Source: Escherichia coli (GTDB lineage Bacteria > Pseudomonadota > Gammaproteobacteria > Enterobacterales > Enterobacteriaceae). From it: a stretch of DNA of 64,000 nt. Location of the stretch: assembly GCF_003334355.1 (NCBI RefSeq), contig NZ_QOWP01000005.1; one strand, 5' to 3'. Position numbers and translations under genes: made by a program. Under the pieces are notes generated by a model. It did not search any database. It worked only from the letters and a program-made list of their open reading frames with translations, and was not told the origin of the DNA. Below, in pieces: positions 59,294-60,628 of this stretch (positions are counted from its first letter, which is position 1; each line of letters starts with the position of its first letter).

Positions 59294-60628
59294 TCATTCC
59301 TTGAAATCGTTTGCATCCAGCTCGTGTCGGGAAAGCAGTTTATAAAATTCTGTCCGGTTGCGCCCCGCCATTCTCGCCGCGTGGGTGACGTTGCCTTTGG
59401 TGATTTGCAGCAGCTTACGCAAATAGTTGAGTTCAAACTGATTACGTGCCTCAACAAAGGTTGGCAGCGCCGTATTTTCACTCTCCAGCGCCTGCTCCAC
59501 CAGCGCATCACTAATCACCGGAGATGAGGTCAGCGCCACGCACTGTTCAATCACGTTGACCAACTGGCGCACATTACCCGGCCAGCTCGCGGTCATCAGG
59601 CGTTTCATCGCATCGGTAGAGAACGCGCGGACAAACGGTTTATGTCGCTCTGCCGCCTGGCGCAACAGGTGATTTGCCAGTAGCGGAATGTCTTCTGTGC
59701 GCTCCGCCAGTGCCGGAATTTTCAGGCTGACAACGTTGAGGCGGTAATAGAGATCTTCGCGGAATTCCCCGCGCGCCATCGCTTTTGGCAGATCACGGTG
59801 AGTGGCAGAAATAATCCGCACATTGATATCAATATCGCGGTTACTGCCCAGCGGGCGCACTTTACGCTCCTGCAACACGCGCAGCAGTTTGACCTGTAAC
59901 GGCGCAGGCATATCGCCAATTTCATCGAGAAATAGCGTACCGCCTTCCGCCGCCTGGAATAAACCTTCGCGATTGCTGACAGCGCCAGTAAACGCGCCAC
60001 GCGCATGACCAAACAGCTCCGACTCCAGCAATTGCTCGGGCAATGCGCCACAGTTAATAGCAATAAATGGTTTGCTATTGCGCGGGCTGGCGTTGTGGAT
60101 AGCCTGGGCGAAAATCTCTTTCCCGGTGCCGCTCTGGCCATTAATCAAAACGCTGACGTCTGATTGCGCCACCAGCCGCGCCTGTTCCAGCAAACGCAGC
60201 ATCAGCGGGCTGCGGGTGACAATTGCCTCGCGCCAGCGTTCATCGGTGGCTGGCGCGGATTGCTCCAGCGCATCGTCAATTGCCTGATATAGCGCATCTT
60301 TATCGACAGGCTTGGTGAGGAAACTAAAAACGCCCTGCTGTGTTGCAGCAACGGCATCGGGAATAGAACCATGCGCGGTAAGAATAATTACCGGCATTCC
60401 CGGCTGCACTTTCTGGATTTCAGCAAACAGCTGCATACCGTCCATTTCATCCATCCGCAGGTCGCTGATAACTAAATCTACTTTTTCGCGATTCAGTACC
60501 CGTAATCCTTCAGCGCCACTTTCCGCCGTGACCACACTGTAGCCTTCGCTGGTCAGGCGCAGGCCAAGCAGTTTCAGCAATCCCGGATCGTCATCGACCA
60601 ATAATAAATGCGCAGGTTTATGGCTCAT
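59294..60628 (-). CDS. glrR: sigma54-dependent response regulator GlrR (YfhA)
   Basis: ORF track frame; start at [16 protein letters not shown] (444 aa); receiver domain, AAA+ Walker [15 protein letters not shown] motif, C-terminal HTH. Confidence 0.93.

Follow-up and report, generated by a model that had tools for sequence, protein, structure and literature searches.

The 11-nt overlap of qseG and glrR in Escherichia coli: junction anatomy, comparative survey and plausible translational coupling

Results

The qseG-glrR junction and its annotation

The window analysed here is a stretch of 64,000 nucleotides of Escherichia coli DNA, and the genes of interest lie on its minus strand. The sensor kinase gene qseE (glrK; 61496..62923, mapped from the annotation of a RefSeq E. 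coli chromosome, L001) is the first gene of qseEGF and stands 164 nt 5' of qseG (yfhG; 60618..61331). By its open reading frame and the RefSeq annotation, qseG codes for a 237-aa outer-membrane lipoprotein, with the TAA stop codon at 60620..60618. The third gene, glrR (qseF, yfhA; 59294..60628), encodes a 444-aa sigma-54-dependent response regulator and has its ATG at 60628..60626. Upstream, where the sequence-only reading had expected it, is the small RNA gene glmY (63018..63165, minus strand), a GlrR target, which matched Rfam RF00128 at 147 bits (gathering score 33).

Based on the sequence and the open reading frame list, qseG and glrR share 11 nt at 60618..60628 of the minus strand, ATGAGCCATAA. 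Written 5' to 3' on that strand, the junction is ...CCC ATG AGG TCA CTC CTG ATG AGC CAT AAA CCT GCG CAT TTA.... The qseG frame reads CAT GAG GTC ACT CCT GAT GAG CCA TAA and ends within the shared stretch as GAT GAG CCA TAA (D-E-P-stop); the glrR frame reads ATG AGC CAT AAA CCT GCG CAT, its first four codons giving M-S-H-K. The RefSeq chromosome L001, which is 99.9% identical, carries the identical 11-nt overlap (glrR 1595..2929, qseG 2919..3632), and glnB, glrR, qseG and qseE are placed alike in the window and in its annotation. The supplementary table of unidirectional E. coli K-12 gene pairs by Huber et al. (2023) lists qseG-glrR at -11, glrK-qseG at +164 and glrR-glnB at +60. The sequence-only reading had located an 11-bp overlap at 60618-60628, with the glrR start inside the 3' end of qseG; both its coordinates and its length are exact. 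The overlap is already catalogued, in RefSeq and in a published gene-pair table, and is an ordinary operon junction.

The gene names used in that reading are also borne out by RefSeq and by the protein families. QseG matched the NCBIfam equivalog NF007997 over residues 2-236 with 359.3 bits, against a cutoff of 234, and PF13942 (Lipoprotein_20) was found on P0001, a protein identical to the QseG of the window. GlrR matched the equivalog NF011695 with 980.3 bits (cutoff 763), residues 1-444 aligning to profile positions 2-445, and the next best family, NtrC, fell under its own cutoff. The neighbourhood agrees with these assignments: glmY, the kinase, the lipoprotein, the regulator and glnB all lie on one strand, an order that distant relatives share.

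The same reading treated glmY, glrK, qseG and glrR as one unit. As a conserved gene order the grouping stands, but as a single transcription unit in E. coli K-12 it does not, since qseEGF has its own promoter. In that strain a sigma-70 promoter lies 25 bp upstream of qseE, glmY is served by its own promoters, and read-through from glmY into qseEGF "does virtually not occur" (PMC6075780). In Proteus mirabilis, glmY and the three genes have been reported as one operon (PMC8745638). A simple scan of the minus strand inside qseG, which is weak evidence, found no sigma-70-like promoter.

The glrR start site

Whether the overlap could be a chance effect turns on where glrR truly begins. Several observations agree on ATG 60628 as the true start of glrR, which we regard as well supported. 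A Shine-Dalgarno-like GAGG at 60638..60641 (minus strand), embedded in qseG codons (Glu-Val), lies 9 nt 5' of this ATG; its predicted pairing to the 3' end of 16S rRNA is -6.3 kcal/mol, a strength reached by only 2.4% of control windows from the same genes. Residues 1-444 match the 445-position GlrR family profile from its position 2 onwards. In other genera the GlrR orthologues start 7-8 codons before the conserved LLLVDDD and open with M-(T/I), and a stop in the glrR frame stands just 5' of the start in the other genera surveyed.

Published constructs point to the same codon. In the work of Göpel and Görke, the published primers place the qseF +1 at ATGAGCCATAAACC (PMC6075780). Their qseG deletion and their chromosomal qseG-3xFLAG allele carry an artificial ribosome-binding site, from a resistance-cassette scar, directly before ATGAGCCAT (PMC6075780 text and S3 Table). 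The qseG-3xFLAG strain retains full glmY activation, and the qseG deletion is complemented by qseG in trans (PMC6075780). The phospho-acceptor numbering D56 used in that study is compatible with a start at ATG 60628. The supplements of the TRAINSPOTTER N-terminomics study make no mention of glrR, qseG or qseF.

Conservation of the junction

The 70-nt junction was present at 90% identity or more in all 5426 of the 5426 complete E. coli genomes, with 3948 at 99% or above, 1474 between 95 and 99%, and four between 90 and 95%. Two of the most divergent E. coli examples were examined, and in both ATGAGCCATAA and the annotated 11-nt overlap are intact.

For the wider comparison, 80 Enterobacteriaceae loci, one per species, were gathered by QseG alignment, making 81 junctions together with the window. 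A distant set consisted of eight QseG relatives from a representative search, 28-46% identical to E. coli QseG, each read on its own contig. The loci are mutually related, and the counts that follow overstate the number of independent events. A 4-nt overlap (ATGA or GTGA) was the form found in 52 of the 81 Enterobacteriaceae junctions and in five of the eight distant ones. Fourteen of the 81, from Klebsiella, Raoultella, some Enterobacter and others, overlap by 14 nt (L015, L019, L021, L028, L030, L041, L042, L051, L055, L057, L058, L063, L064 and L076, with the junction near position 3200); seven overlap by 1 nt and one by 8 nt, and these three lengths were absent from the distant set. The 11-nt overlap was seen in six of the 81, namely the window and five Escherichia species, and once in the distant set with a different sequence. 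The two remaining distant junctions have a 41-nt overlap and a 1-nt gap, neither seen among the 81, and an apparent 42-nt gap occurred only in a Leclercia locus of the Enterobacteriaceae set.

Over a range of QseG identity from 28 to 100%, 86 of 89 junctions place the qseG stop no more than 14 nt from the glrR start, and a premature stop that opens a gap of more than 1 nt is absent from 88 of the 89. All 85 junctions tested have a Shine-Dalgarno-like motif of -5.5 kcal/mol or better; among 21,034 control windows the share is 13%. Compared with their counterparts in Salmonella, Citrobacter, Enterobacter and Klebsiella, the E. coli genes are alike in identity, order and strand, with the glrR Shine-Dalgarno motif contained in the tail of qseG and qseG terminating on the glrR start or a short way into it. 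What differs is the length: orthologues mostly have the 4-nt ATGA, the Klebsiella/Raoultella group 14 nt, the Citrobacter amalonaticus group 1 nt and Escherichia 11 nt, and the Escherichia proteins differ from their orthologues by three additional residues (DEP) in QseG and one residue fewer in GlrR. Judged from these alignments, the tight qseG-glrR junction is a trait of the family and the 11-nt form marks the genus Escherichia.

Four individual loci deserve description. In Leclercia adecarboxylata NCTC13032 (L029, about 3120..3180) the 42-nt gap follows a qseG frameshift in a C5 run, and the old frame ends in CCATGA; the frameshift may be a true mutation or a homopolymer assembly error. The distant 11-nt overlap (L089 2761..2771, 35% identity) reads ATGCCGAATAG and, since the sequence differs from that of Escherichia, is taken to be of independent origin. 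In L090 (4300..4786) a NAD synthetase gene follows glrR in place of glnB, and qseG and glrR are 1 nt apart. In L091 the called qseG-glrR overlap of 41 nt spans 2767..2807.

Origin of the 11-nt form

In the alignment of junction DNA, the interval from GAGG to ATGAGCC is one base shorter in Escherichia than in Citrobacter and Salmonella (GAGGTAACGCCATGATGAGCC versus GAGGTCAC-TCCTGATGAGCC). Loss of a net 1 nt between GAGG and the start, CCATGATGAGCC to CCTGATGAGCC, is the most likely source of the Escherichia form, its precursor being an ATGA/TGATG form. The ancestral 4-nt-overlap form would have been CCTGATG plus one A, i.e. CCATGATG. Such a deletion would have removed the first of two tandem ATGs and shifted the old TGA stop out of frame, after which qseG would extend by three codons (Asp-Glu-Pro) to a TAA supplied by glrR codons 3-4 (CAT AAA). 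The deletion together with the TAA at the glrR start accounts for the end of E. coli QseG, ...EVTPDEP as compared with ...EVTP in its relatives, and for the single residue by which E. coli GlrR falls short of the family profile.

A parallel 1-nt deletion is apparent in the alignment of the 4-nt form of Enterobacter asburiae with the 14-nt form of E. sichuanensis. In Escherichia and E. sichuanensis alike, the qseG frame, once shifted, runs into the TAA of xxT-AAA codons at the glrR start, and the TAA that ends the 14-nt forms (CGT AAA) is homologous to the one closing the E. coli 11-nt form. A single-base deletion separates the 14-nt and 4-nt forms within the Enterobacter cloacae complex, and the 14-nt form therefore arose more than once.

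Discussion

Translational coupling of qseG and glrR

The sequence-only reading held that the overlap implies coupled translation of the lipoprotein and the response regulator. This goes further than the evidence: the overlap permits termination-reinitiation and is no proof of it. From the arrangement of the two frames, coupling of qseG and glrR by this mechanism is plausible. For a ribosome terminating at the qseG UAA, the glrR AUG would lie 5 nt back from the P site, with the GAGG still covered; such a ribosome could slip back and restart on glrR. Free ribosomes could also initiate independently at the glrR site. Probably both routes contribute, with independent initiation taking the larger share. 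The case for some coupling is evolutionary: the junction is tight in 86 of 89 loci, and a stop-prone QseG tail lacks gap-opening stops in 88 of them. Against strict coupling stand the motif that the glrR site has of its own, the lack of special RNA structure, the QseF and QseG copy numbers and the survival of function with a synthetic site, all described below, as well as a distance of -11 that is just outside the range taken as predictive.

Native E. coli gene pairs that overlap by a few nucleotides have been shown to use termination-reinitiation (PMC10666635, PMC12548453). Such pairs, among them hyfH-hyfI, ydbH-ynbE and menD-menH (Huber et al. 2019/2023) as well as trpB-trpA, resemble qseG-glrR in being co-directional, on one mRNA, and with a stop within a few nucleotides of the next start. 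However, the tested pairs have distances of -4 or -1, whereas qseG-glrR at -11 would need a 5-nt backward move of the ribosome, and its coupling is putative. Huber et al. (2023) treated a stop-to-start range of -8 to +10 nt as predictive of reinitiation. The co-directional qseG-glrR pair of E. coli lies just beyond this range, and the -4 and -1 arrangements of most other species fall within it. The overlap classes enriched in E. coli are -4, -1 and -8, longer overlaps being rare (PMC10666635, PMC12548453).

Two further systems are instructive. In phage fr's coat-lysis pair (Adhin and van Duin 1990, as summarised in PMC10666635 and PMC12548453), the downstream start likewise precedes the upstream stop and a backward move is required; by those accounts, however, the overlap is 34 nt and the lysis start depends on termination of coat translation, whereas a ribosome-binding site can be recognised for glrR itself. 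In nifL-nifA of Klebsiella pneumoniae, a regulatory pair, both genes are translated by the same ribosome (PMC12548453). The two pairs are alike in that a modulating partner is encoded just 5' of a sigma-54 activator. They differ in that the nif proteins are unrelated to QseG and that coupling there was demonstrated with specialised ribosomes, whereas for qseG-glrR it is inferred. The literature on qseEGF was found to hold no discussion of qseG-qseF coupling and no experiment on the junction.

Taken as a whole, the reading we consider likely is that the overlap is an ordinary annotated junction, joining the second gene of the qseE-qseG-glrR (qseEGF) operon to the third, and that some glrR translation comes from reinitiation there. 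The anatomy, the start site, the conservation and the indel pattern are shown by the data above, while reinitiation and the share of glrR translation it would provide are inferred. A stronger proposal, which we advance tentatively and judge somewhat unlikely, would place the position of the qseG stop under selection throughout the family. Restarting ribosomes would tie part of QseF synthesis to the limiting QseG, and repeated 1-nt frameshifts in the variable tail would be tolerated only because a conserved TAA, made by the xxT-AAA codons (Arg/His-Lys) at the glrR start, catches the frame within 14 nt, which would make the -11 and -14 forms functional equivalents of ATGA and not products of decay. 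Neither the length nor the sequence of the QseG tail is constant, and it is rich in codons for Glu, Lys and Gln, any of which a single substitution can turn into a stop. That 88 of 89 junctions nevertheless lack a premature gap-opening stop in so stop-prone a tail suggests selection on the termination point of qseG.

The main alternative is that the overlap has no translational role, glrR being served only by its own Shine-Dalgarno site and the 11 nt having arisen neutrally when a QseG tail that the protein can do without lost 1 nt. Much is in keeping with such an account: all 85 junctions tested keep the motif, the site is free of blocking structure (z = +0.38, see below), and the overlap length drifts among 1, 4, 8, 11, 14 and 41 nt. 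Protein abundance also agrees with it, QseF being reported at about three times QseG, that is, about 36 QseF against 11 QseG molecules per cell (Schmidt 2016, as quoted in PMC6075780); provided that stability and quality of measurement are the same for both proteins, the quoted ratio of 36:11 is not attainable by one restart per termination. Moreover, function persists when a synthetic ribosome-binding site replaces the overlap, and since the rebuilt junction still functions, the overlap is not essential (PMC6075780). Against a junction with no role stand the absence of premature stops giving a gap of more than 1 nt, in 88 of 89 junctions with a variable and stop-prone tail, and the reinitiation of native E. 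coli short-overlap pairs (PMC10666635). Weighing these, we regard the lack of any translational role as unlikely, though with enough in its favour to be taken seriously.

Coupling could in principle also operate by RNA unfolding, one of two accepted mechanisms (PMC12548453), in which a hairpin would lock the glrR ribosome-binding site until a ribosome translating qseG melts it. The minimum-energy fold does pair the GAG of the motif with a nearby CUC, but in a 3-bp stem that is too weak to block initiation. The 131-nt junction has a minimum free energy of -30.2 kcal/mol, compared with -31.5 +/- 3.4 kcal/mol for shuffled sequences (z = +0.38), and 123 of the 200 shuffles fold at least as well, so that the junction folds no better than shuffled sequence. 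No stable structure that sequesters the glrR site was found in this comparison; a structure hiding the site was rejected on that ground, and we hold coupling by unfolding to be very improbable. Scanned with Rfam at the gathering score, the locus yielded nothing beyond GlmY, and a permissive scan of 60500..61600 returned only sub-threshold matches, away from the junction.

It is scarcely credible that the overlap is an annotation artefact, with glrR truly starting at the in-frame ATG at 60641..60643 (minus strand; a 26-nt overlap, the frame being open upstream to 60730) or at a downstream codon outside qseG, given that the profile match from position 2, the working MSHKP-starting protein of the published constructs and the D56 numbering all fit ATG 60628. 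The upstream ATG has a predicted 16S pairing of -0.1 kcal/mol and no Shine-Dalgarno-like motif, is confined to Escherichia among the genera surveyed, and was rejected as unsupported by the profile and by the orthologue N-termini. The sequence-only reading had named a start at a downstream ATG outside qseG as the observation that would tell against it, and this objection fails: the sole start-type codon in frame before LLLVDDD is TTG codon 10 (60601..60599), and a protein begun there would lack HLLLVDDD, the conserved opening strand of the receiver domain, leaving no functional receiver domain.

Short overlaps between operon neighbours are common, and this one, being in the standard annotation and in a published gene-pair table, is by itself of little import. 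The comparative result is a small addition: the junction is kept tight family-wide, and the Escherichia form is traced to a single-base deletion. For engineering of the locus, it matters that deletions and tags at the 3' end of qseG reach into both the start codon and the ribosome-binding site of glrR, which is the reason for the rebuilt junctions of published constructs. The natural series of -1, -4, -8, -11 and -14 would suit tests of overlap length and reinitiation in a setting where QseG dose limits signalling.

A repeat element in the qseE-qseG spacer

The spacer between qseE and qseG (61332..61495, 164 nt) is nearly all one imperfect-palindrome repeat, at 61341..61487 of the minus strand, bounded by the terminal inverted repeats GCCTATCC...GGATAGGC. 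Its folding energy is -55.2 kcal/mol (z = -4.96). Between ycbX and rlmKL stands another copy with 88.6% identity, and at lower stringency E. coli genomes carry a median of 5 copies and a maximum of 8. The "RSA" repeats of the K-12 GenBank record are 150/151 bp long and present in six copies (PMC5172473). The length and copy number of the spacer repeat fit these, which makes it a candidate RSA repeat.

Escherichia albertii has an empty site, TAATGC-TAA-GTCTGGTGAATATG (L006 2480..2503), where the window at 61332..61498 reads TAATGC-TAA-[element]-TAA-GTCTGG.... By comparison with E. albertii, the E. coli site has gained 147 nt by insertion, with duplication of a 3-nt target (TAA). The spacer is 17 nt in E. 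albertii and in L005, and the 147-nt insertion is found in E. coli and three other Escherichia species (L002-L004). The insertion parted qseE from qseG and severed an upstream in-frame ATG that, in E. albertii, overlaps the qseE stop. In most relatives the qseE-qseG junction is tight or overlapping. As read from these alignments, the E. coli lineage lost its tight qseE-qseG junction to the insertion and retained the qseG-glrR overlap, which is older than the insertion because it is common to E. albertii.

Directly after the qseE stop, at 61471..61488 of the minus strand, the left end of the repeat forms a terminator-like hairpin with a T-run (AGCCTATCCTATCAGGCT ATTTTATTTG), a possible attenuator or stabiliser of the operon mRNA in the interval from qseE to qseG. 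Also inside the repeat, at 61361..61427 (minus strand), is a sub-threshold Rfam match to the Xanthomonas small RNA sX9 (29.4 bits where the gathering score is 44; E = 0.004), which probably reflects chance or a common hairpin shape.
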